DNA of 64,000 nt. Source: an uncultured Candidatus Saccharibacteria bacterium (GTDB taxonomy: Bacteria > Patescibacteriota > Minisyncoccia > RBG-13-40-8-A). Shown piece after piece: positions 35,573-52,387 of this stretch (the first letter of the stretch is position 1; each line of letters starts with the position of its first letter). Under the pieces are notes generated by a model, which saw only the letters and a program-made list of their open reading frames with translations, had not been told where the DNA came from and made no database searches. The DNA lies in assembly GCA_965231075.1 (NCBI GenBank), contig OZ246412.1, positions 170,019 to 234,018 on the forward strand, given 5' to 3'. Position numbers and translations under genes: made by a program.

Positions 35573-36776
35573 AAAAAAACAGATAAAAATCGTAGTTACC
35601 ATTATTGTTATGGCGATATTGTTCGTCGGAGGTTTTTTTGTCGGAAAGCAATCCTCAAGCAATTTATCAACTTCCAGTCAGATATTTTTTAATCGAGAAC
35701 TGGGCAAGCCAGAACCAATGGACTTTAGTCCGTTTTGGCAAGCATTGAAAGTACTAGAAGATAAATACGTTAATAGTGAAAAAATTAATTACCAAAATCT
35801 ATTATATGGTGCAATCGAAGGAATGACCAATTCGCTTGGCGATGATTATACCGTATTTATGAAACCAGAAAAAACAGAATCATTTATGCAAAGCGTTGAT
35901 GGTAAGGATAGTTTTGAGGGGGTGGGAATGGAACTTGGTTTAAAAGAAAAGATTTTGACGGTCGTAGCACCTATCGAGGGAACTCCGGCATTTAGGGCAG
36001 GGATTAAGGCTGGTGATAAAATCTTAAAAATTGATGACAAATCCACAGAAGGGATGCAGACCGAAGAGGCAGTAAGTTTAATTCGTGGCAAAAAGGGGAC
36101 TACAGTTGTATTGTCAATTATTAGAAGCGGATTCCGAGAACCAAAAGAATTTTCTTTGGTTCGTGATAACATCGAGGTTCCGGTGATGCGATGGGAAATG
36201 CTTGCCAATGACATTGCCTACATTAAGATTTATCAATTTACTTCTAATCTTCCTGACAAATTTGAAAACGCGGTATCGGAGCTGTTAAAAAATAATGCTA
36301 AAAAAATTATTATTGATTTGAGAAATAATCCCGGCGGATATCTAGAAACTGCTGTCGATATTGTGAGCTGGTTTAATCCTAAGGGATCAATAGTTTTAAA
36401 AGAAGAATTCAAGAACGGAGAAGGAGATGAATATATAAGTCGCGGATATTCAACAATCGCTAATTTTCCGGTCGTGGTTTTAGTTAATCAGGGTTCGGCA
36501 TCGGCGTCAGAAATTATGGCCGGCGCGCTTAGAGATATAAGAGGGGTTAAATTGGTAGGCAATACCACTTTTGGTAAGGGCTCGGTTCAAACAGTGGAAA
36601 CATTTAAAGATGGATCATCCTTAAAGATAACAGTTGCCAAGTGGTTAACTCCTTCGGGTGTTTCGATTAATGAAGAGGGACTAGAGCCGGATTTCGAAAT
36701 TGAATACACCGACGAAGACTATGCCGATGGCAAGGATCCACAGCTAGATAAAGCAATTGAGTTACTAGGTAAATAA
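35562..36776 (+). CDS. ctpA: Carboxyl-terminal processing protease (S41 family) with a PDZ domain
   Basis: PDZ (GIKAGDKILKIDDKSTEGM) and the S41 catalytic region (VLVNQGSASASEIMAGALRD, K further on). Confidence 0.85.
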   Translation: MVSRKKQIKIVVTIIVMAILFVGGFFVGKQSSSNLSTSSQIFFNRELGKPEPMDFSPFWQALKVLEDKYVNSEKINYQNLLYGAIEGMTNSLGDDYTVFMKPEKTESFMQSVDGKDSFEGVGMELGLKEKILTVVAPIEGTPAFRAGIKAGDKILKIDDKSTEGMQTEEAVSLIRGKKGTTVVLSIIRSGFREPKEFSLVRDNIEVPVMRWEMLANDIAYIKIYQFTSNLPDKFENAVSELLKNNAKKIIIDLRNNPGGYLETAVDIVSWFNPKGSIVLKEEFKNGEGDEYISRGYSTIANFPVVVLVNQGSASASEIMAGALRDIRGVKLVGNTTFGKGSVQTVETFKDGSSLKITVAKWLTPSGVSINEEGLEPDFEIEYTDEDYADGKDPQLDKAIELLGK

Positions 36777-36786
36777 AATTATTAAA

Positions 36787-37260
36787 ATGAAAGTCATTTT
36801 ATTAAAAGATATTCAGGGATTGGGGAAAAAAGGAGAAATTAAAAATGCCTCAGATGGGCATGTAAGAAATTTTCTTGTGCCAAAAAAATTAGTTAAGATT
36901 GCTACAGATAAGGCAATTAAAGAGTGGGAACAAGAAAAAGCTATGGAGGCGCAAAAAGCGGAACAAGAATTACAACACGTCGAAGAAGTTGTTTCACAGA
37001 TAGACGGTTTAGAAATAGAGGTTCCAACCAAAATGGACGAATCGGGCAAACTCTATGGTTCAATCAATGATCAAAAAATAAGTCAATTATTTAAAGATAG
37101 AGGATTTGATATTAGAAAAAATCAAATTAAAATTCCCCAACCGATTAAAACGATTGGAGAATATCCAATAACAATTAGCTTTGATCACGGACTAGAAGCA
37201 GAAATCAAACTGATAATCGTTGACGAAGCCCTACTGAAGACTAAATCAGAAGAGAATTAA
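36787..37260 (+). CDS. rplI: 50S ribosomal protein L9
   Basis: [35 protein letters not shown]. Confidence 0.9.
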
Positions 37261-37529
37261 ACAACATCAACGACCTTAAAAGTTTTTTTGTTGCCATCAA
37301 ATCCAGTTTTAGAGGTTGTTCTAAACTTAACAGTTCCCGATTTTACAGCATACAAAGTATCGTCTTTGCCTTTTCGAACGTTCTTACCGGCAATAAATCT
37401 TGTGCCTCTTTGGCGAATTATAATACTACCAATTTGAGCTTTTTGCCCCTGGTATAATTTTACGCCTAGATATTTTGGTTGCGAGTCTCGTCCTAGTTTA
37501 GTCGATCCCGCGGATTTAGTTGTTGACAT
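37257..37529 (-). CDS. rpmA: 50S ribosomal protein L27
   Basis: [29 protein letters not shown]...[10 protein letters not shown]. Confidence 0.95.
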
Positions 37530-37643
37530 AGAATTTTATGTTATCACATTTAAAAGAATATTTCAAGCACAATAGCCATGACATGTTTATTGTCGTGGTT
37601 ATTATTTTAATCGCCCTAATTTTCTTTGGTCTGGGCCGTCTAT

Positions 37644-38741
37644 CTACGCCCTCTTTGTGCTTGCCTTAATTATTGTGTATTTTTTGTTTTCTTTTTTCGC
37701 TTCCGAAAGTTGATCTTGGATTGGTTGGGGGAGGGTTCTGATTATTTTCTCCAGTTTCTCAATATCATAACCACCAACCCTTAATTGTGTTAAACGTGTG
37801 ATAAAACCAGAATCCCCAAATACTCTTTCAATTTTTTCTCGGTCTAAATAATTTTCAATGATATCTTTTAATTCATTGATTTTTTTATTGTTTTGAGTGT
37901 TGTTGTTTTTCAGGTCCAAAAACTGATTAATAACTTTTTTAATTTGTTCGTCATCAATGGTTGTTTCTTTATATAAATGCTTCCACATTGGGCAGATTTT
38001 TTTGTATCCACACCAATCACAAAGCACTGATGGCATTGGTTCAAATTCACTTTTTTCAATCTTCTTTAATTCTTGCCAAACATGTTTTTGCACCTCATTT
38101 AGCTGTTCTTTGGTTCGATGGGTGGAAATTGTCTCTTGGTGCTTTAAATAGTACAGAGTCAATTTAATGTTTTCAATGCCGTTTTCTATAAATTGCGGCC
38201 AGCGATTCATTATTCCTAGGCAATACAAAGACATTTGCATGCTTTTGTGAATATCTTCTTGAGAAGGTAATTTTTTTGTAGTTTTGTAGTCAATAATTTC
38301 AATTCCGGTTTTAGTTTTATCGATTCGATCGATGATCCCCGTTAAAAGACATTTTTCTTCTTTGTTTTCGGGATTTTCCAGTAAAACTTCAAATCTAGTT
38401 TCGGTGCCAAGTACAGAGAAATTATCTTTAATTTTTAAATAATTTTCGTAATAGTTTTTAAGGATTTTTATGGCTTCGGAAAAATAAATCATATCTTCGT
38501 CTCCCTGAAAAACCGTGCTATCCCAAATGGTTTTAAAATGGTTTAGCAACTCGTCCAAAGTAGGGGAGACGGGATTTTGTTTATGGAACCACTCTAATGC
38601 TTCGTGAAGTTTTCCACCAAAAACCGCCTCTTTTGTTTTAGGGGCCTTTATTTTATCGATAACTTGAAATTTATACTTAAGTGGACACTGTTTAAACGTG
38701 TCTAACGCAGAGTATGAAATTCTCAATGTTTTTCGTTCCAT
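37644..38741 (-). CDS. Cas4-like / RecB-family PD-(D/E)XK nuclease with a 4Fe-4S Cys cluster (365 aa), carrying a ~110-aa C-terminal extension
   Basis: N-terminal Cys (FKQCPLKY), GIIDRID...IEIIDYKT (the PD-(D/E)XK motifs) and C-terminal CDWCGYKKIC (C-x2-C-x5-C). Confidence 0.7.
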   Translation of the reverse strand: MERKTLRISYSALDTFKQCPLKYKFQVIDKIKAPKTKEAVFGGKLHEALEWFHKQNPVSPTLDELLNHFKTIWDSTVFQGDEDMIYFSEAIKILKNYYENYLKIKDNFSVLGTETRFEVLLENPENKEEKCLLTGIIDRIDKTKTGIEIIDYKTTKKLPSQEDIHKSMQMSLYCLGIMNRWPQFIENGIENIKLTLYYLKHQETISTHRTKEQLNEVQKHVWQELKKIEKSEFEPMPSVLCDWCGYKKICPMWKHLYKETTIDDEQIKKVINQFLDLKNNNTQNNKKINELKDIIENYLDREKIERVFGDSGFITRLTQLRVGGYDIEKLEKIIRTLPQPIQDQLSEAKKENKKYTIIKASTKRA

Positions 38742-38742
38742 G

Positions 38743-39591
38743 TTATTTTTCTAAAAATTCGATTGCTTTTTTTGCGTCTTTATAGCCAAGATCAAAAGTA
38801 TCGCTAAGATGTTTTTGGTTTGTGTCTAATAAAAAGGTTATAGGGATTTTTTTGGACGGCGTTAAAAGCATGATATTTTTATGTCTTAATGCTTCTTTTT
38901 TGACGAATTCAATTTTTTTAAAATAATCACGCATCAAATTTTCAATATTTTTGGGCAATGCGCGCGAAGCTTGTTCGAATAAAAATTTTACCACACTTCT
39001 TTCCTGATATTTATTTTCTTTATTGTGAACAATTAAAATTTTGTCAAATTTTTTAATAAAACTTGTTTTAAATGGCAATGGTTCGGCGAGTCCACCATCA
39101 AGGTATTTTATGCCATTTATTTTGACCATTGGATATAGTGGAAAAATTGCGGAGGAGGCATTCATTGCTTTAAACAAATTTTTTTCTGTAGGTTTTATAT
39201 ATTTAGCTTTTCCGGTTTTGAAATCGGTTAAAACATATTGTAAATCAACTTTTGAATTAGCTATCTCTCTCGGTTTCGGCTTACAGGTTTTTTTTATGGC
39301 AACGGTTAAATAGTCTAAATCTAAAACATGTCCTTTTTGATAAACATTTTTGAAATCAACTAATTTGTCAGAATCAATATATTGCTTCCAAAGTTTTTCT
39401 AGTCCGTCTGTGGAATTAGAAATAAAAGCGGTTGAATTATAAGCACCCGCAGAAGAACCGATAATTTTATCGAAATAATTGGGTCCAAATTTTTTACAAA
39501 GTCGATGTAAAACCCCAGCACTATAGGCACCTCGTAATCCGCCCGAACCAACAATTAATAATTTTTTTTGTTTTTTTAAATTTTTTCTCAT
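38743..39591 (-). CDS. Patatin-like phospholipase (~282 aa from the internal start MRKNLKK; the track ORF extends to 39684)
   Basis: Oxyanion hole GSGGLRG, nucleophile elbow GSSAG and the catalytic DGG (YLDGGL). A start at 39591 gives an ATGA overlap with the upstream membrane-protein gene. Confidence 0.75.
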   Translation of the reverse strand: MRKNLKKQKKLLIVGSGGLRGAYSAGVLHRLCKKFGPNYFDKIIGSSAGAYNSTAFISNSTDGLEKLWKQYIDSDKLVDFKNVYQKGHVLDLDYLTVAIKKTCKPKPREIANSKVDLQYVLTDFKTGKAKYIKPTEKNLFKAMNASSAIFPLYPMVKINGIKYLDGGLAEPLPFKTSFIKKFDKILIVHNKENKYQERSVVKFLFEQASRALPKNIENLMRDYFKKIEFVKKEALRHKNIMLLTPSKKIPITFLLDTNQKHLSDTFDLGYKDAKKAIEFLEK

Positions 39592-39989
39592 AGAGCCAAG
39601 AATAAAATGTTTAATAATATAATTATTATGTCTACTAATAAGTAAATACGATTTGTTTTGTGTGGTTGTCTTTGGGTGTGCCAAAGACCAATTTTAGAAT
39701 TTCTGAATTTTTTTATTAAAACCAAGGAAGTGTCTACAATCAACCCTCCAACTGCTCCTAATATAGTGCCGAAAGAATATTGGTAATAACAAAGCAAAAT
39801 TAATATTATGGTTGATATTGTCGCGTCTAAAAATATTATTCTGTCTTGACTTTTTTTGTTATTTGGCCAATAATGAGGAACTTTATCAAATATAAAATGC
39901 AATAAAATCCCCGTCAAAAAAGCGATTATTGGGTTTCCGATAATCTTACCAGCGCTTGCGCCAATTAAGGTGTGATTTATGCTTAACAT
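39588..39989 (-). CDS. Hypothetical small membrane protein (133 aa), first gene of the membrane protein-patatin-nuclease operon
   Basis: 3-4 TM helices. It is tightly coupled to the patatin gene. Confidence 0.45.
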   Translation of the reverse strand: MLSINHTLIGASAGKIIGNPIIAFLTGILLHFIFDKVPHYWPNNKKSQDRIIFLDATISTIILILLCYYQYSFGTILGAVGGLIVDTSLVLIKKFRNSKIGLWHTQRQPHKTNRIYLLVDIIIILLNILFLAL

Positions 39990-40020
39990 GTTCTAATTAT
40001 AAATCATTTTTAAATTATAA

Positions 40021-40052
40021 AAAAGCAGGGGAGAGGAGGTCTCTCGCCCTGC
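40021..40052 (-). terminator. Rho-independent terminator (minus strand), paralogous to the one at 40325-40362
   Basis: On the minus strand it reads GCAGGGCGAGAGACCTCCTCTCCCCTGC followed by TTTTTT. Confidence 0.65.
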
Positions 40053-40060
40053 GGGGGTAC

Positions 40061-40258
40061 TCAAATATTCCTTACGACGAGAATGATGGTGTCCGTGAAC
40101 AGCAAGAACTCCGTACAGCCCATCAGAAAAAGTGCACCAGAGATGGCCCTTGTTTTATCGGGCGCGGTGAGTGGGTTAGTGTTTAGCGCTCTGGCACTAG
40201 AGACCATAAACACAACAAACCAAATCCACCAATACCTAAGGATAAATTCCCAAAACAT
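40061..40258 (-). CDS. Possible small hydrophobic protein (65 aa) bracketed by two similar terminators
   Basis: The ORF has two TM-like segments. No homology recognised. Low confidence. Confidence 0.25.
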   Translation of the reverse strand: MFWEFILRYWWIWFVVFMVSSARALNTNPLTAPDKTRAISGALFLMGCTEFLLFTDTIILVVRNI

Positions 40259-40324
40259 ATTATCCTCCTTGAATTAAAAGATAAATTTATCTTAACGCGC
40301 CTAATTGTTTGCGTCAAGGAGAAT

Positions 40325-40362
40325 AAAAAAGCAGGGGAAAGGAAAACCTCTACCCTGCGGGA
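40325..40362 (-). terminator. Rho-independent terminator after xerD (minus strand)
   Basis: AAAAAGCAGGGGAAAGGAAAACCTCTACCCTGCGGG on plus. On minus it is a hairpin followed by TTTTT. Confidence 0.65.
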
Positions 40363-40390
40363 AGATTCAGAATCTGCGTTGTTTATTATT

Positions 40391-41362
40391 TTATTCCTTT
40401 AGTTTTTTTCCACTATGAAATTGGCGGTGGATGTCGCGGAGGTGTTTGTTGGTGACGTGAGTGTAGATTTGAGTTGTGGCGACGCTTTGATGACCAAGAA
40501 TCTCTTGAACTGTTCTTAGATCTGCTCCTTGGTTTAGTAAATCGGTCGCTAATGTATGACGTAAAACGTGTGGAGTAACTTTTATTGGCAATCCCGCAAG
40601 ATGCGAATATTTTTCTACCATTCTTTCAATCGAACGCACAGTAAGTCGAGAAGGGGAGAGATCGCTCTCTTTCTTGGGTCGATAATTAATAAATAGTGCT
40701 TTGTCGTCATCATTTCTTGTATCTAAATAATGTTTTAACCACCGCACAGCTCTTTCGGAAAAATAAACCGTTCTAACATGTCCGCCTTTTCCCGTGATGC
40801 TTAATTCCACATCTTTGGTGTCAGGTTTTATTTTAAATTGATTTCTATTTAAAGCAACTAACTCGGCAATACGCAATCCAGTAGAGAAGAGGATTTCCAA
40901 AATTGCTCGATCTCGCATCCCGATATTGTGCGACGTATCGGGGGTTAGCAACAATTTCTCAACTTGGTCTAATGTTAAGAACTTTACAGTTTGTTCGCTT
41001 TTTTCTCGTTTGGCTAATTTAATTTTATCAACTGGTAATGATTGAATGTCTCGATCAGTAAAAAAAGTTAATAAATTTCTTAAGGCAATTAAGTAATAAT
41101 TTTGTGTCTTCTTGGTTAGAGTTTTAGGAGAAGTGTCTGAAATAGGTGAGCGGGCCAAAAAGATTCGATACTGCCAGATATGTTCGGACGTCAGTTCGTG
41201 GGGCTTTAAATCTTCATTTTTGGTTGTTTTTAACCAATTGGTAAACTTGTGTAAGTACCGGGCGTAGTTTTCTTGAGTTTTTGATGCCGCACCACGTTCA
41301 ATTTCTAAATACTCAAGAAAATCAGATATATGTTTTATTATGGGAATATTAGATGTCTTCAT
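40391..41362 (-). CDS. xerD: Tyrosine site-specific recombinase, XerC/XerD-like
   Basis: N-terminal SAM-like domain and the C-terminal catalytic region HVLRHTLATDLLNQGADLRTVQEILGHQSVATTQIYTHV, which contains R, HxxR and the Y nucleophile. Confidence 0.85.
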   Translation of the reverse strand: MKTSNIPIIKHISDFLEYLEIERGAASKTQENYARYLHKFTNWLKTTKNEDLKPHELTSEHIWQYRIFLARSPISDTSPKTLTKKTQNYYLIALRNLLTFFTDRDIQSLPVDKIKLAKREKSEQTVKFLTLDQVEKLLLTPDTSHNIGMRDRAILEILFSTGLRIAELVALNRNQFKIKPDTKDVELSITGKGGHVRTVYFSERAVRWLKHYLDTRNDDDKALFINYRPKKESDLSPSRLTVRSIERMVEKYSHLAGLPIKVTPHVLRHTLATDLLNQGADLRTVQEILGHQSVATTQIYTHVTNKHLRDIHRQFHSGKKLKE

Positions 41363-41515
41363 AATCTTTAAAAAATAGTTATAGGGGAGAAGTGCTCGGA
41401 TAAAACCCCCTCTATATAGTCGCTTAACTATGATTGTGCGTCGTTATACTTATATATAACAATGCCCTTTGGCACTCTCTCCTCTTCTATGATTATATAA
41501 TATCTTTAATTAAAA

Positions 41516-42739
41516 TTATTGTAAATATTTTTGTGGATCTAGGTGTGCACCAATTGGCACTGTACCATACCATGTTTTTTGTATTTGAACTGACTCGGAC
41601 GTGTAAACCCCAAAATGCACGTGTGCCCCGGTCGAATATCCCGTGCTCCCCTCATATCCAATAATATCGCCTCTTTTAACCTCGTCTCCGGCCTTAAAGC
41701 TGCCATATCCGGACATGTGGCCATATAAAGTGGTTAGTTTGTTGTCATGTTCTACCATTATCCATTTGCCGTAAGCATACTTGCCACAGTTCCCTATCGC
41801 CAAAATTTTTCCATCACGAGCCGACTTGATTGGCGTTCCATACTTGGTAGATATATCTATGCCATTATGGAACCCGCTTTTATACATTCTCTTGCTAAAG
41901 GCGGTATAACCATATCCTTGAGTTAAAACCCCTTCCATGGGCCAACTAAGGGCCCCAGGACGTGCTTCTACAGAGTTTGGATCAATGGTGGCCTGTATTT
42001 TGTCTTCTAGGTCGAAAATCTGTTGCTCTACCTCTTGTTGTTTTCGAAGGGTGTCATTTAGTAGTGTTTGATATTGCTTTTCTTGTCCTTTGGTTTGAGT
42101 CAAAAGATAATTCTTTTCTTGTTTCTCGCTGTCAATGATTGACTTTTGGTTAGAAAGTTGATTTCTTAATGATGCTAATTGATTTTTTTGAATCTCGGCA
42201 CTAGTTTTTTGTGTTTCCATCTCTCTTTTAATATTTTGAAGGTTGGTGATATTATTCTGGATGCTTTTTTGGATTGATTCCATGTAATGTATTTGGTTTA
42301 CAAAATCAGAAAGATTGTCCTGAGTTAAAACAATTTCCATTAACGATTCCTTATCGTATTCGGCCATGACCTGCAGCAAATCAGAAATTTCTTTTCTTTT
42401 CTTATCAATTTCATCTTGTTTAAGGTCAATGTCTAATGCTAAGGATTCAATTCTTAATGATGTTGCAGAAATTTTACTAGTGGTTACCGAAATATCCCCT
42501 TGAAGCGCTTTAATTCTACTGGCAATAATTGCTAACTGATTATTAAGCGTGTTTTTTTGCGACTGCGTACTTGTTAATTCTTTTTGATATTCGGCTGCTT
42601 GTGCTTCAAGTTGTTTAATTTCTGCCTCTTTTTGATTGATTTGGGCCTGTAAATCGTCAACAAGGCTAGCCGAAGATGGGCTTGGTAATAACCAGCAACC
42701 AAGAAATAAGATACAAATTATAAGTATTGTTTTTCTCAT
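41516..42739 (-). CDS. M23-family metallopeptidase with a long N-terminal coiled coil (EnvC/NlpD-like murein hydrolase or activator)
   Basis: Signal peptide, a ~250-aa heptad-rich coiled coil, and a C-terminal LytM domain (HNGIDIS...HVHFGVY). Confidence 0.8.
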   Translation of the reverse strand: MRKTILIICILFLGCWLLPSPSSASLVDDLQAQINQKEAEIKQLEAQAAEYQKELTSTQSQKNTLNNQLAIIASRIKALQGDISVTTSKISATSLRIESLALDIDLKQDEIDKKRKEISDLLQVMAEYDKESLMEIVLTQDNLSDFVNQIHYMESIQKSIQNNITNLQNIKREMETQKTSAEIQKNQLASLRNQLSNQKSIIDSEKQEKNYLLTQTKGQEKQYQTLLNDTLRKQQEVEQQIFDLEDKIQATIDPNSVEARPGALSWPMEGVLTQGYGYTAFSKRMYKSGFHNGIDISTKYGTPIKSARDGKILAIGNCGKYAYGKWIMVEHDNKLTTLYGHMSGYGSFKAGDEVKRGDIIGYEGSTGYSTGAHVHFGVYTSESVQIQKTWYGTVPIGAHLDPQKYLQ

Positions 42740-44217
42740 TTAAGTAATTCGATTGCCTTTTGAATACGTTTTAATGTCTCGGACTTCCCTAGGATTTCAG
42801 CGATTTCAAATGGACCTGGCGATTTTTCTTTTCCGCTTAATGCAGCACGCAACGGCCACAACAGTTGTCCGCGATCTATTTTCCCGTCAGAATTTATAAA
42901 TTTTTCTGCTTCCGGCAAAAGGATTTGTTTTAACTTTTCGGCTTCAAAATCATCATCTTTAACGTCGCACAATATTGTATATGCTTTATTCAACGAATCT
43001 AGTGTTTTTTGCTTAGGTGCGTCTTTCCCTCCGGGCTTTTGGCCCTGTAGGGCTGGAGGCCATGTTAGCATGTTTGAATTATACTCTGATTCCTCGAAAA
43101 AGAAAGCACTCGACTCCCCTATGTCAGATAGCTTGGTCATTCTTTCTTGTTCGAGTTTAATTATTTTTTCAATCGTTTTTTTATCTAAATTAGAATCCTT
43201 CGGTAAATACGGTAAACATAATTCAGTTAATTCTTTTATGGGCATTTGTTTGATGTATTGGCCATTAATCCAATCCAATTTATCGGTGTTGAATATTGCC
43301 GGATTTCTGTGAACCTTATCCCAATCAAACATTTCAATTAATTCTTTCAAACTTAAAATTTCTTTTTCTCCATCTTTGACACTAAGAATTATAAGTCCAA
43401 TAAAATTAATCAATGCTTCGGGTAAATATCCTTTTTCAATAAAATCCTCTACTGCCACATCTCCTTTCCTTTTACTAAGCTTTCCGCCGTCTTTACTAAG
43501 CATTAGCGAAGGATGAACAAAGACTGGTGGCTCCCAGTTAAAATATTTATACAATAAAATATGTTTTGGCGCAGAAGGAAGCCACTCCTCTCCCCTAATC
43601 ACGTGAGAAATTTCCATTAAATGATCGTCAACGGTGCTAGCGAAATGATAGGTTGGAAATCCGTCTGATTTAATTAAAACCTGGTCATCGATTAAATCGG
43701 ATTTAAATTCAATTTCACCGTGAAGTAAATCTTTAAATTTTATCGTCTCCCCTTCCGGAACCATCATTCTAATGGTGTATGGCGTATTGTTCTTTAAATT
43801 TTCATCAATTATTTGTTGGTCTAAATAGCGACAATGTTTGTCATACATTGGTGCTTGTTTTTTGGCGATCTGTTCTTCGCGCATTTCACCTAATCTTTTT
43901 TCGGTACAAAAACAATAATATGCTTTTTTCTCTTTGAGTAATTGATCGGCATATTTTTTATAGATATCTAATCTTTGAGATTGGAAAAACGGACCCTCGT
44001 CAAATTTGATGCCAAACAAATTGAGTGTTTTGAGTAAAGATTCAATTGCTCCCTCAACAAACCTTTCTTGATCTGTATCTTCGATGCGTAAAATAAAAAC
44101 ACCCTTTTCTTTTCGAGCAAAAAGGTAATTTAAAAGCACCATTCGCAAGCTGCCAATATGCAAAAAGCCCGTCGGCGATGGCGCAAACCGTACCCTAATT
44201 TTATTCTTCTTGGGCAT
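42736..44217 (-). CDS. gltX: Glutamate--tRNA ligase (start taken at MPKKNK; the track ORF extends to 44247)
   Basis: RFAPSPTGFLHIGSLR (the HIGH region) and KLSKRKG (KMSKS). Confidence 0.9.
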   Translation of the reverse strand: MPKKNKIRVRFAPSPTGFLHIGSLRMVLLNYLFARKEKGVFILRIEDTDQERFVEGAIESLLKTLNLFGIKFDEGPFFQSQRLDIYKKYADQLLKEKKAYYCFCTEKRLGEMREEQIAKKQAPMYDKHCRYLDQQIIDENLKNNTPYTIRMMVPEGETIKFKDLLHGEIEFKSDLIDDQVLIKSDGFPTYHFASTVDDHLMEISHVIRGEEWLPSAPKHILLYKYFNWEPPVFVHPSLMLSKDGGKLSKRKGDVAVEDFIEKGYLPEALINFIGLIILSVKDGEKEILSLKELIEMFDWDKVHRNPAIFNTDKLDWINGQYIKQMPIKELTELCLPYLPKDSNLDKKTIEKIIKLEQERMTKLSDIGESSAFFFEESEYNSNMLTWPPALQGQKPGGKDAPKQKTLDSLNKAYTILCDVKDDDFEAEKLKQILLPEAEKFINSDGKIDRGQLLWPLRAALSGKEKSPGPFEIAEILGKSETLKRIQKAIELLK

Positions 44218-50203: not shown

Positions 50204-51595
50204 TTATTTTTTTACTTTTTTGTCTGGAACTTTTATTTTTAATTCTTTAAGTTGGGCGTCGTCGATTCTGCCGGGTGCGTTCATCATTAAATCGCGACCA
50301 TCTCCGGCTTTTGGAAACGCCATAACTTCTCGAATATTGGCTTCGTTAGCCAACAACATGATTAAGCGATCAATTCCCCAAGCAATTCCGCCGTGTGACG
50401 GAGCACCAAAGGACAATGCTTCTAACATGTGTCCAAAATTATTGATGATTCTTTGCTCTTCAAATCCCATAATCTCAAAAACCGCTTTTAGGGCTTGTGG
50501 TTGATGATTTCTAATGCTTCCTCCGCCTAATTCATAACCATTTAAAGCGATATCGTATTGGGTGGTTAAAATTTCTCCGATTTTTTCTTTATTTAATAAC
50601 CATTCCATATGTGCAGGAATTGGACCAGAAAATGGATTATGGGTAAATGTCCACGAACCATTGTCCTCTTTTTCAAAAAATGGAAAATCAATAATCCAGC
50701 AAAATGCTAAAAGATTTTTGTTGTCCTTGTCTTTTCTTAAATCTGGTTTATCGGTGCCATATTTTTCCATTGCCTCTTTGCAACTGATTCTTGGAAATGG
50801 AATTTCTTGGATTTCCTTTTCTGGGCAAACATTTTTAATCATATTAATTATCAATTCTTCGTTTACGGCCATAACATCTTCGCGTTCAACAAAACTCATT
50901 TCTAAATCAAGCTGTGTAAATTCGGGTTGTCTGTCCCCTCTGGCATTTTCATCTCTAAAGCATCTGGCAATTTGAAAATACTTTTCAACTCCACCCACCA
51001 TTAACAACTGTTTGTATTGTTGTGGTGATTGTGGAAGGGCATAAAACGTTCCTTCTTGCAGTCTTGATGGTACAACATAATCACGCGCTCCTTCGGGAGT
51101 GGATTTGGTCAATATTGGTGTCTCAATTTCTAAAAATTGTTTATCCGATAAGAAATTGCGAATATATTGTATGATTTGATGTCTCAAGATTAAATTATTC
51201 TTAATTCTTTCTCTGCGGATATCAAGATATCTGTATTTTAAGCGAGATTCTTCATTAATTTCGTAGCCGTCGGTATCAATGGCAAATGGAGTTGTTTCGG
51301 CTTTATTGATAATTTCTAATTTTTCGGCTTGCATTTCAACTGTTCCGGTAGGAACATTTTTATTAATCATTTTTTCTGGTCTCTTGTTGATTGTTCCTTC
51401 GATTGAAATCACCCATTCAGTTCTTACATCTTTGACTATTTCGGCGTCGGTAAAAACAACCTGTAATATTCCAGATCGATCGCGTAAATCAATAAAAACA
51501 ATTTTGCCATGATTTCTGCGGTTATGCACCCATCCCGAAATCTTAACCTTCTCCCCCGCCTTATTAATTGTTTCAATAATATTAGTTCTTTCCAT
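50204..51595 (-). CDS. aspS: Aspartate--tRNA ligase, short archaeal/eukaryal-type (463 aa, no GAD insertion domain)
   Basis: N-terminal OB fold (ISGWVHNRRNHGKIVFIDLRDRSG), class II motif 2 (FQIARCFRDE) and motif 3 (GGGSIRNH...GIDRL). The length matches the non-discriminating type. Confidence 0.9.
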   Translation of the reverse strand: MERTNIIETINKAGEKVKISGWVHNRRNHGKIVFIDLRDRSGILQVVFTDAEIVKDVRTEWVISIEGTINKRPEKMINKNVPTGTVEMQAEKLEIINKAETTPFAIDTDGYEINEESRLKYRYLDIRRERIKNNLILRHQIIQYIRNFLSDKQFLEIETPILTKSTPEGARDYVVPSRLQEGTFYALPQSPQQYKQLLMVGGVEKYFQIARCFRDENARGDRQPEFTQLDLEMSFVEREDVMAVNEELIINMIKNVCPEKEIQEIPFPRISCKEAMEKYGTDKPDLRKDKDNKNLLAFCWIIDFPFFEKEDNGSWTFTHNPFSGPIPAHMEWLLNKEKIGEILTTQYDIALNGYELGGGSIRNHQPQALKAVFEIMGFEEQRIINNFGHMLEALSFGAPSHGGIAWGIDRLIMLLANEANIREVMAFPKAGDGRDLMMNAPGRIDDAQLKELKIKVPDKKVKK

Positions 51596-51635
51596 ATGTT
51601 TTTATATTATCATAAATTGTTAAAAAGTAAAATAA

Positions 51636-51872
51636 AAACCCCTCGACTATGCTCGGGGTAAAAAGCGGGGTCTACAACCGCCTTGTGATGGTTTTGGGCG
51701 ATGAAGCCCGATGCAGCAGACAACTGAAAGGAGTTGTAAATGTTTTTGGCAACGCCGTCCTATGTTGCAAAAACACTTACATTGTTGCGAGAAGGAGGTA
51801 CTCGCGAAAAAGAGCTAAGTTAATCCCGAGAAGGACTACTCCTCTTTGGCGTTGGTTGTAGACCCTGTTGTT
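51636..51872 (-). ncRNA. ~235-nt structured RNA on the minus strand, transcribed from its own promoter and ending in an intrinsic terminator ~40 nt upstream of the aspS ATG. It is either a cis-regulatory leader/attenuator or an independent small RNA; the class was not determined.
   Basis: A perfect 12-bp long-range helix (GGGUCUACAACC at 51869-51858 pairs with GGUUGUAGACCC at 51679-51668 on the minus strand) encloses ~170 nt containing several local hairpins. It is followed by a CCCC...GGGG hairpin and UUUUUAUUUU at ~51640-51660. Confidence 0.5.
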
Positions 51873-51878
51873 AATTCA

Positions 51879-51906
51879 ATACTATCAAATACAATAAAGA
51901 TGTCAA
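51879..51906 (-). promoter_or_regulatory. Sigma70-like promoter on the minus strand (TTGACA-16-TAGTAT) driving the structured RNA/aspS leader
   Basis: The reverse complement of 51901-51906 is TTGACA. The reverse complement of 51879-51884 is TAGTAT. The spacer is 16 nt. Confidence 0.6.
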
Positions 51907-51909
51907 TAG

Positions 51910-51932
51910 AAAAACCCCGCATCTGCGGGGTT
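51910..51932 (-). terminator. Rho-independent terminator after greA (minus strand)
   Basis: CCCCGCAGATGCGGGG hairpin. On the minus strand it is followed by a U-run. Confidence 0.8.
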
Positions 51933-51937
51933 TTGTC

Positions 51938-52387
51938 TTATTCAATATCTAGAATTTTATAACGAATTTTGCCGCCGGGGGTAAGGACAATTACTTCCTC
52001 CCCTTTCTTTTTACCAAAAAATGCCCTGCCCAACGGCGATTCATTGGAAATCATGCCCTTGGTTGGATCGGCTTCTTCTGATCCAACTAAAACGAATTCT
52101 TTTTTAGAGTCACTATTTTTAACGGTAATCTTGCAACCCACATCAACATAATCACATTTATGTTTTTTGTCGACGAGTTTAGCTTCACCTAAAAATTGTT
52201 CCAACTCTTTTATTTTACCTTCATTAAATGCTTGTGCTTCCTTGGCTTCGGTATATTCGGCACTTTCTGAAATATCGCCTCTTTCCTGGGCTTCTTTAAT
52301 TTGTTCCGATATGCTTTTTCGATTTTCCTTTAACTGCGTTAGTGTTTCGCGAAGTTCTTTATATTTTTCTGGGCTAATGTATTTCAT
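51938..52387 (-). CDS. greA: Transcription elongation factor GreA
   Basis: N-terminal coiled coil with acidic tip residues (ERGDISESAEY) and a C-terminal FKBP-like domain. Confidence 0.9.
   Translation of the reverse strand: MKYISPEKYKELRETLTQLKENRKSISEQIKEAQERGDISESAEYTEAKEAQAFNEGKIKELEQFLGEAKLVDKKHKCDYVDVGCKITVKNSDSKKEFVLVGSEEADPTKGMISNESPLGRAFFGKKKGEEVIVLTPGGKIRYKILDIE

Follow-up and report, generated by a model that had tools for sequence, protein, structure and literature searches.

A structured RNA element in the greA-aspS spacer of a Patescibacteria genome: a candidate lineage-specific small RNA

Results

A structured element lies between greA and aspS

The 64-kb stretch of DNA analysed here (the window) comes from an uncultured, Parcubacteria-like member of the Patescibacteria (candidate phyla radiation, CPR) and carries a structured RNA element in the spacer between greA and aspS, the gene for aspartyl-tRNA synthetase (AspRS). 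All coordinates of the element and its surroundings refer to the minus strand of the window (Table 1), and L-numbers denote related loci. Read along that strand, the greA terminator is followed by a promoter, the sequence GGGTCTACAACC, five hairpins, the sequence GGTTGTAGACCC, a U-tract, a CCCC/GGGG hairpin with a U-run, and finally the aspS start codon (ATG, 51595). An earlier reading of the letters alone (the original prediction) had named the downstream gene aspS, and the domain content and homologues of its product agree; the protein lacks the GAD insertion domain of longer bacterial AspRS. No gene was called in the greA-aspS gap in two independent assemblies.

Table 1. Features of the greA-aspS region in the window and at related loci
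Feature	Position or size	Strand	Description
greA coding sequence, upstream neighbour	51938..52387	-	149 aa; Pfam GreA_GreB_N and GreA_GreB on the identical protein
greA-aspS spacer, whole	51602..51937	-	336 nt; collinear L081 lacks exactly these positions (blastn break)
greA terminator, strong, T1-type	51910..51934	-	AAAACCCCGCAGATGCGGGGTTTT + T; -18.6 kcal/mol, z = -5.8; terminator scan positive
RNA promoter	51879..51906	-	TTGACA-16-TGnTAGTAT; -35 at 51906-51901, TG at 51887-51886, -10 TAGTAT at 51884-51879
Closing-helix 5' strand (anti-T0)	51848..51865	-	P1 GGGUCUACAACC 51865-51854, bulge AAC, P2 GCC 51850-51848
Hairpin H1	51809..51847	-	Shine-Dalgarno-like AAAGAGGAG paired to CUCUUU; in minimum free energy and centroid folds; pair probability ~0.6-0.9
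Hairpin H2	51787..51805	-	GCGAG / CUCGC; 9-nt loop UACCUCCUU resembling anti-Shine-Dalgarno; pair probability 0.99
Hairpin H3	51735..51781	-	18-bp stem, 10-nt loop AUAGGACGGC; pair probability 0.9-0.99
Single-stranded ACUCCUUU	51734-51727	-	Predicted fold
Hairpin H4	51726-51714	-	Loop UGUCU; predicted fold
Hairpin H5	51709-51696	-	Predicted fold
T0, small conserved terminator hairpin	51660..51684	-	AAGGCGG-UUGUAGACC-CCGCUUU + U-tract; hairpin 51684-51662, -7.4 kcal/mol
T1b, degenerate second T1 copy	51629..51658	-	CCCCGAG..CGAGGGG + U-run; hairpin 51658-51639, U-run 51638-51629; -8.2 kcal/mol, z = -0.8
aspS near-leaderless promoter	51596..51631	-	TTTACT 51631-51626, 16-nt spacer, TGnTAATAT 51612-51604, 8 nt, ATG 51595
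aspS (AspRS)	50204..51595	-	463 aa; Pfam PF01336 + PF00152; homologues named aspartate--tRNA ligase
Spacer of L081, L094, L082	4 nt		
Spacer of L101, L105, L108	about 65-70 nt		Single terminator T1 + aspS promoter
Spacer of L109	~73 nt		T0-like terminator + promoter
Spacer of L098	134 nt		greA terminator, small hairpin T0 (AAAAGCGGTTAGACTCCGCTTTT), T1, promoter
Spacer of L096	1144 nt		
Spacer of L091	>800 nt		Contig ends before aspS
Spacer of L099			Lipoprotein-like gene with own promoter
Compact aspS T-boxes	L010 2846-2979; L020 779-887; L025 2807-2980; L029 704-874		
Compact aspS T-boxes	L044 2780-2916; L048 625-899; L060 2729-2945; L076 2821-2974		Also L021, L056, L069

The original prediction described a near-consensus promoter on the minus strand. 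We found that this promoter also has an extended -10; with both strands of the window counted, only three sites combine an extended -10 with a perfect TTGACA. Transcription had been thought to begin at the GGG that opens the long-range pairing; the promoter spacing instead predicts a start near 51872, some 6-7 nt upstream of GGG. The resulting transcript would be ~210-245 nt long, depending on the terminator used. Its G+C content is 0.48, as against 0.35 for the genome and window.

The 12-nt perfect pairing between the two ends of the element, likewise anticipated, is present and extends further than had been recognised. Helix P1 joins GGGTCTACAACC (51865-51854) to its perfect complement GGTTGTAGACCC (51679-51668) and encloses 174 nt, and helix P2 adds three pairs (GCC/GGC, 51850-51848 with 51682-51680); the closed domain measures 198 nt. 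Of 2000 dinucleotide shuffles of the 336-nt spacer, 5 contained a perfect inverted repeat of 12 nt or longer. Pairing of the anti-T0 segment with the T0 region is worth -27.2 kcal/mol, with estimates for the 12-bp helix running from about -24 to -27 kcal/mol. The hairpins that the pairing was said to enclose number five (H1-H5): the 207-nt core folds with a minimum free energy of -75.5 kcal/mol (z = -7.9, against z = -4.8 for the opposite strand), and P1, P2 and H2-H5 have pair probabilities of 0.8-0.99. The spacer sequence is base-for-base the same in two independent Logan assemblies, and thus the cassette is not an assembly artefact; assemblies of SRR12133403 and SRR12133404 contain the organism. 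Together, the rarity of the promoter, the inverted-repeat statistics, the fold z-score and the identical independent assemblies demonstrate that the structured element is real and non-random.

The closing helix and the T0 hairpin compete for the same strand

The 3' strand of P2/P1 (51682-51668) consists of the 5' arm and loop of T0. Because these parts of T0 supply one strand of the closing helix, the T0 hairpin and the helix are mutually exclusive. T0 homologues are present in the spacers of L098, L099, L091 (twice) and L096, and the window T0 matches the L091 motif with 86% identity across 36 nt; the local T0 hairpins are weak, at -7.4 to -11.7 kcal/mol.

T1b aligns to the intact T1 of L098, and the T1 hairpins of relatives reach -14.2 to -14.7 kcal/mol. 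The original prediction took this CCCC/GGGG hairpin and its U-run for the terminator of the RNA. The hairpin is indeed present, but it is imperfect and weak (-8.2 kcal/mol), its energy is no better than that of shuffled sequences, and the terminator scan gave it no match. The strong terminator of the spacer lies at its other end: the greA terminator is nearly identical to the T1 hairpin found directly 3' of greA in L101 and L105.

Close relatives carry different inserts at the same junction

Looking up the exact GreA sequence and its 90% cluster, and searching for homologues of GreA, yielded a graded series of greA-aspS spacers in close relatives. The spacers range from 4 nt to >1.1 kb (Table 1). 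L081 is collinear with the window at ~80% nucleotide identity (mreBCD-PBP2-greA-aspS-S11 peptidase-GT4-amidohydrolase-FtsW; in the window the neighbours are mreBCD, PBP2, greA, aspS, the S11 peptidase and a family-4 glycosyltransferase), and its junction reads simply TAAacatATG. Window positions 51684-51590 align to the L098 spacer (74% over 103 nt), indicating that T0, T1 and the aspS promoter are the older parts of the spacer. Specific to the window are the promoter and RNA body, with a T1-type hairpin on either side.

The two flanking genes do not share their nearest relatives. GreA is 94-95% identical to that of L081, L091 and L095 and 86% identical to that of L096; AspRS is 96% identical to that of L096 and 75% identical to that of L081. 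Across the window, L081, L091, L094-L099, L101, L105, L108 and L109, the cargo of the junction, where there is any, includes structured RNAs, an unknown 170-aa open reading frame (ORF) and a lipoprotein-like ORF. From these comparisons, the greA-aspS junction is a hotspot of insertion and recombination with mosaic ancestry in this clade, and the window cassette appears to be one of several interchangeable, promoter-bearing inserts in the spacer of a small group of Patescibacteria. The cargo ORFs of L096 and L099 gave no informative match in Pfam, PADLOC or PHROGs. The 170-aa ORF of L096 (5010-5522) lies between the RNA cassette and aspS and has a strong Shine-Dalgarno sequence (AAGGAGG) and a promoter of its own; it had no Pfam or PHROGs match and only a marginal CARF-like match in PADLOC (E = 0.005).

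The closing helix covaries between two cassettes

The L096 cassette starts from a promoter (ctaTTGACA-N16-TAGTAT) that is 82% identical over 33 nt to the window RNA promoter. After this promoter comes RNA-C, a closed multi-hairpin domain of 362 nt (z = -6.7), and 3' of the RNA lie T0', T1', another promoter, the 170-aa ORF, a terminator and then aspS with its promoter. L091 contains two further promoter-driven units, each starting with a 5'-terminal closing helix: RNA-A (1536-1862), with a 17-bp 5' closing helix and z = -4.6, and a second unit that is probably the 5' untranslated region of an ORF. Local alignment shows no relationship between the RNA bodies in the window, in L096 and in L091, the scores being at the level of shuffled sequences.

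We compared the closing helices of the window and L096 by pairing each strand with its own and with the other's partner. In the window, GGGUCUACAACC-(AAC)-GCC pairs with GGC-GGUUGUAGACCC at -27.2 kcal/mol; in L096, GCAGGGGCUGACCGC pairs with GCGGUUAGCCCCUGC at -35.6 kcal/mol, with one G.U pair and a reach that extends into the U-tract. Non-cognate swaps between the two gave only -13.9 and -20.9 kcal/mol, which indicates compensatory change on both strands. The GCGGUU common to both T0s keeps the same partner, and the T0 positions that differ have compensating changes in theirs. These comparisons suggest that a closing helix recurs in the cassettes of this junction and co-evolves, with the resident terminator as its 3' strand. 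The original prediction had looked to covariation as a check: it is found in the closing helix, and H1-H5, with no homologue of the RNA body found in the searches made, gain no such support.

RNA-A of L091 has no T-box motif and no Rfam match. One of its hairpin loops, AGACUGACAAG, contains CUGACAA as in T-box specifier loops, and UUGGCA lies near its terminator.

aspS appears to have its own, near-leaderless promoter

A second promoter ends 8 nt before the aspS start codon (Table 1). This stretch is 92% identical over 49 nt to L096 and is conserved in L098, L101, L105 and L108, and its -10 is kept wherever the spacer holds a terminator. The arrangement is in keeping with the rest of the window: among 57 ORFs of at least 120 aa, TATAAT-like hexamers stand 6-7 nt upstream of the ATG in 11, compared with ~1 per offset elsewhere, and only 7 of the 57 have a Shine-Dalgarno-like motif. 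This is the signature of a host genome in which transcripts would be largely leaderless. Given its own promoter and the absence of a leader in relatives, aspS appears to be independent of the window RNA.

No known RNA family or coding function is recognised

Rfam 15 at the gathering threshold matched nothing in the whole window. An Rfam scan of the element itself, which the original prediction had proposed, matched no family even at E<=10: searches with 211 or 501 nt around it returned only terminator-driven or microRNA-like noise, and no T-box. ARAGORN found no tRNA or tmRNA. An RNase P-like reading of GAGGAGUAGUCC and ACAAGGC was discarded, as there is no RNase P match at E<=10 and no room for the P4 pseudoknot.

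The position upstream of an aminoacyl-tRNA synthetase gene called for a closer comparison with T-box leaders. Among 80 aspS loci from other Patescibacteria, most with <100 nt upstream of aspS, about 12 have very compact T-box leaders there (Table 1). In these, a short stem I hairpin displays the Asp codon GAC in its terminal loop, CUGACA(A/C), and is followed by GGGUGGCACCGCG and a terminator. Their scores of 26-31 bits make them clearly detectable, but because these values are far below the gathering score of 93 of the Rfam T-box model, standard annotation misses them. The canonical T-box sequence, which the original prediction could not find, is truly missing from the window RNA. The pattern G[GA][TC]GGNACC[GA] is present upstream of aspS in 11 related loci and absent from 51596-51937; the consensus AGGGUGGNACCGCG, which forms the antiterminator bulge, is not present in the RNA; UGG, and hence the UGGN that would pair with the tRNA 3' NCCA, is absent from the whole RNA; and there is no specifier loop CUGACA, GAC occurring only in the H3 loop (AUAGGACGGC) and the T0 loop, in other contexts.

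Searches for relatives of the RNA were negative in other sequence collections as well. The pattern of the inverted-repeat pair had no match in viral contigs, and three 18-19-mers of the RNA had either no match there or matches to coding sequence that are due to chance. Across 241 million metagenome records the pair matched once (L085), which we judged to be chance. The L085 match (1939-2146) lies in a fold-back (palindromic), high-GC contig, probably an assembly chimera, that encodes a repeat protein with a GVYNLTV motif. Neither a 70-aa ORF on the plus strand nor ORFs of 34-37 aa on the minus strand showed coding potential: they have no Pfam match, no gene call, an atypical composition and no start signals.

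Discussion

A possible small RNA closed by a helix with the resident terminator

Our tentative preference is that the element is an independently transcribed, lineage-specific gene for a non-coding structured small RNA, and that T0 has been recruited into its terminal helix. Transcription would start from a strong promoter of the sigma-70 type with an extended -10, giving a transcript whose first ~20 nt are complementary to T0, the putative intrinsic terminator of the ancestral spacer. Once T0 is transcribed, the 5' end would pair with its 5' arm and loop, and the resulting 12+3-bp terminal helix would displace the weak T0 hairpin, closing the five hairpins just upstream of the T0 U-tract. We infer that this helix acts as a terminator or as a structure that defines the 3' end, with the degenerate T1b as back-up, and that it may protect both ends and so yield a stable RNA. 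In Gram-positive bacteria, 5'-terminal helices protect against 5'-end-dependent decay, and the terminal helix of the window RNA could act likewise. aspS would be transcribed separately, from the near-leaderless promoter 30-60 nt further on.

What such an RNA might do is suggested by its exposed segments. The loop UACCUCCUU and the single-stranded ACUCCUUU point to a trans-acting regulator of the few mRNAs with a Shine-Dalgarno sequence (AAGGAGG) as the most concrete guess. Small RNAs of the RsaE/RoxS type are similar in being free-standing genes that run from promoter to terminator and in having unpaired CCUCCUU and CUCCUUU motifs complementary to AAGGAGG; the window RNA, however, is much larger and branched, shares no homology with them, has no supported target, and belongs to a host that uses Shine-Dalgarno sequences in ~12% of genes. 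The original prediction had also offered a standalone RNA with a 6S-like closed stem. Its standalone part fits better than a leader does, but the 6S-like part does not hold. Like 6S and other stable housekeeping RNAs, the window RNA is ~200 nt long, has a strong promoter of its own, pairs its ends in a long helix and has a G+C content well above that of the genome. Unlike 6S, it does not fold into a rod around a central bubble: if pairs are allowed only between one half of the RNA and the other, the fold reaches -54.6 kcal/mol, 20 kcal/mol worse than the -74.7 kcal/mol of the branched fold, and the middle is left poorly paired. Nor does it have an Rfam match, and housekeeping RNAs are conserved, whereas this RNA is not, even among close relatives.

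Several points weigh against the small RNA interpretation. Promoter activity and the RNA ends are predictions, and a long-range helix serving as an intrinsic terminator is unusual. H1-H5 derive from thermodynamics, the only other copies being 100% identical and hence offering no variation, and the covariation of the closing helix comes from two cassettes; copying of inverted repeats at the DNA level could give the same pattern of covariation. No homologue of the RNA body was found with nhmmer and a single-sequence covariance model in 608 kb of aspS/greA neighbourhoods, which returned only the query, or with blastn in plasmid and phage collections. Unconstrained target prediction with RNAduplex performed no better than with a shuffled small RNA, so that the target idea is unsupported. 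Finally, neither of the two hairpins at the 3' end is strong (-7.4 and -8.2 kcal/mol), and substantial read-through into aspS is therefore possible, which would make the RNA a de facto leader.

This last point leads directly to the possibility, which we regard as real but unlikely, that the element is a cis-acting leader or antiterminator. Its promoter would then drive aspS, with the closing helix neutralising T0, the decayed T1b letting polymerase through, and the RNA body tuning how much polymerase passes, perhaps as a sensor of tRNA-Asp, AspRS or some other signal. The mutual exclusion of the closing helix and the far less stable T0 hairpin (-27 vs -7.4 kcal/mol) is consistent with such a switch, as is the decay of T1b relative to the T1 of relatives (-8.2 vs about -14.5 kcal/mol). 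Other Patescibacteria do regulate aspS by T-box leaders at this position; GAC appears in the H3 and T0 loops and GUC in the H4 loop; and the counterpart RNA of L096 also precedes a gene, the 170-aa ORF. However, L096 has a further promoter between RNA and gene, some of the closest relatives express aspS without any leader, and a conserved promoter of the leaderless type lies downstream of the window RNA. The RNA has no UGGN or T-box element, and its body is unrelated to that of L096, which is hard to square with a common sensor. Moreover, the 12+3-bp helix would form whatever the ligand. The same consideration led us to discard a generic ligand-gated riboswitch: a perfect 12-bp helix is too stable to serve as a ligand-gated P1 (-24 to -27 kcal/mol, as against -7.4 kcal/mol for T0), and the body is not conserved even in L096. 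The T-box or riboswitch-like attenuator of the original prediction thus fails, given the lack of T-box features and of any Rfam match, the absence of the element from several close relatives and the separate -10 of aspS.

A broader version of the preferred small RNA reading would treat the junction as a modular RNA locus of a kind not described before, in which the promoter and T0 are conserved, unrelated structured bodies are swapped in between, and each 5' end pairs with T0. We consider this conceivable, though doubtful. If true, such exchangeable RNA cassettes in the minimal genome of a symbiont could be related to conflict (defence, mobile elements) or represent a new way of making stable RNAs.

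It is rather improbable that the element acts as DNA, either as an invertible or mobile segment bounded by inverted repeats of 12-15 bp or as a by-product of the hotspot with an incidental fold. The perfect repeats around a 174-bp segment, the good fold of both strands, the mosaic ancestry of the hotspot (GreA nearest L081/L091, AspRS nearest L096) and the duplication of T1 on both sides of the cassette would all fit, as would the T0-like and anti-T0-like repeats of L091 RNA-A, which stand in reverse order relative to its promoter. A short non-coding insertion with perfect inverted repeats at a variable intergenic site also recalls miniature inverted-repeat transposable elements (MITEs), Correia-like elements and invertible switches. 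Yet here the repeats do not lie at the boundaries of the insertion, one of them is a pre-existing terminator, and the ends of the repeats show no target-site duplication. The repeats also differ between the window and L096, tracking the local T0, as a repeat family recognised by a transposase would not. The G.U pair of the L096 helix suits RNA and would be a mismatch in DNA, and of the two strands the transcribed one has the more exceptional fold (z = -7.9 vs -4.8). No second copy of the repeat element occurs in the window and no genuine one in the 241 million metagenome records, the cassette has the same orientation in three assemblies, and no recombinase is encoded among the immediately neighbouring genes.

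Very unlikely, in our judgement, is a highly structured mRNA that encodes a small protein, as in type I toxin systems, and is silenced by 5'-3' pairing and by sequestration of its Shine-Dalgarno sequence. The hok and AapA1 mRNAs share with the window RNA the pairing of 5' and 3' ends, a sequestered Shine-Dalgarno-like motif (here AAAGAGGAG, buried in H1), a strong dedicated promoter and a strain-variable locus, and a 34-codon ORF starting with GUG ends at a UAG inside T0. Against this, no AUG, GUG or UUG follows the Shine-Dalgarno-like motif within 5-13 nt, so that a workable start codon is missing; the candidate ORFs are hydrophilic and basic, with neither a Shine-Dalgarno sequence nor a Pfam match, and do not resemble a plausible toxin; no gene was called in independent assemblies; neither an antisense promoter nor an antisense RNA gene was found; and Shine-Dalgarno use is rare in this genome.

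A divergent T-box riboswitch for aspS has next to no chance of being correct: the RNA does resemble a T-box leader (RF00230) in its place directly upstream of an aminoacyl-tRNA synthetase gene, a place that T-boxes hold in about 12 of 80 related loci, in its order of promoter, structured RNA, and hairpin with U-run, and in its alternative terminator pairings, but it lacks GGUGGNACC, UGGN and a specifier hairpin (which carries CUGACA in genuine T-boxes of the clade), has its two ends joined in a 12-bp helix, is missing from several close relatives, lies upstream of a gene with its own promoter, and leaves the Rfam model silent at E<=10, where Patescibacteria aspS T-boxes, as positive controls, score 25.7-31.3 bits.

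Significance and minor observations

The regulatory and structural RNAs of CPR/Patescibacteria are almost unknown, and a full-text literature search returned no paper that deals with 6S RNA, with T-boxes or with leaderless translation in these organisms. If expressed, the element would be a structured RNA without a family in a genome of ~0.6 Mb or larger that has little room for junk. The locus also offers an example of a housekeeping operon, greA-aspS, that terminators, a leaderless promoter and inserted cassettes appear to have divided. The base-pairing between a transcript's 5' end and a resident terminator, compensatory in two cassettes, would be a testable design principle for the protection of RNA ends or for termination. 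For annotation, the window RNA should not be labelled as a T-box or riboswitch, and at the Rfam threshold genuine minimal aspS T-boxes of related lineages go unnoticed.

Upstream of aspS in L051 (1582-1953) we noted a C-rich RNA closed by 15 bp (GGGGCGGAAAACGCA...UGCGUUUUCCGCCCC), with a strong terminator behind it; this RNA is not a T-box and is unrelated to the window RNA. The window AspRS has been placed in a 90%-identity cluster represented by a 53-aa fragment of an IS3 transposase, a clustering artefact that likely explains why the AspRS of L096 (96% identical) was absent from the AspRS homologue search. Elsewhere in the window (~36000-44000), the sign of the GC skew flips near 40 kb, where genes also converge, a pattern that resembles a replication terminus. 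A 400-nt gap at 39990-40390 contains two similar hairpin repeats (aaaaagcagggga...cctgcggg), and its minus strand folds well (z = -5.2).

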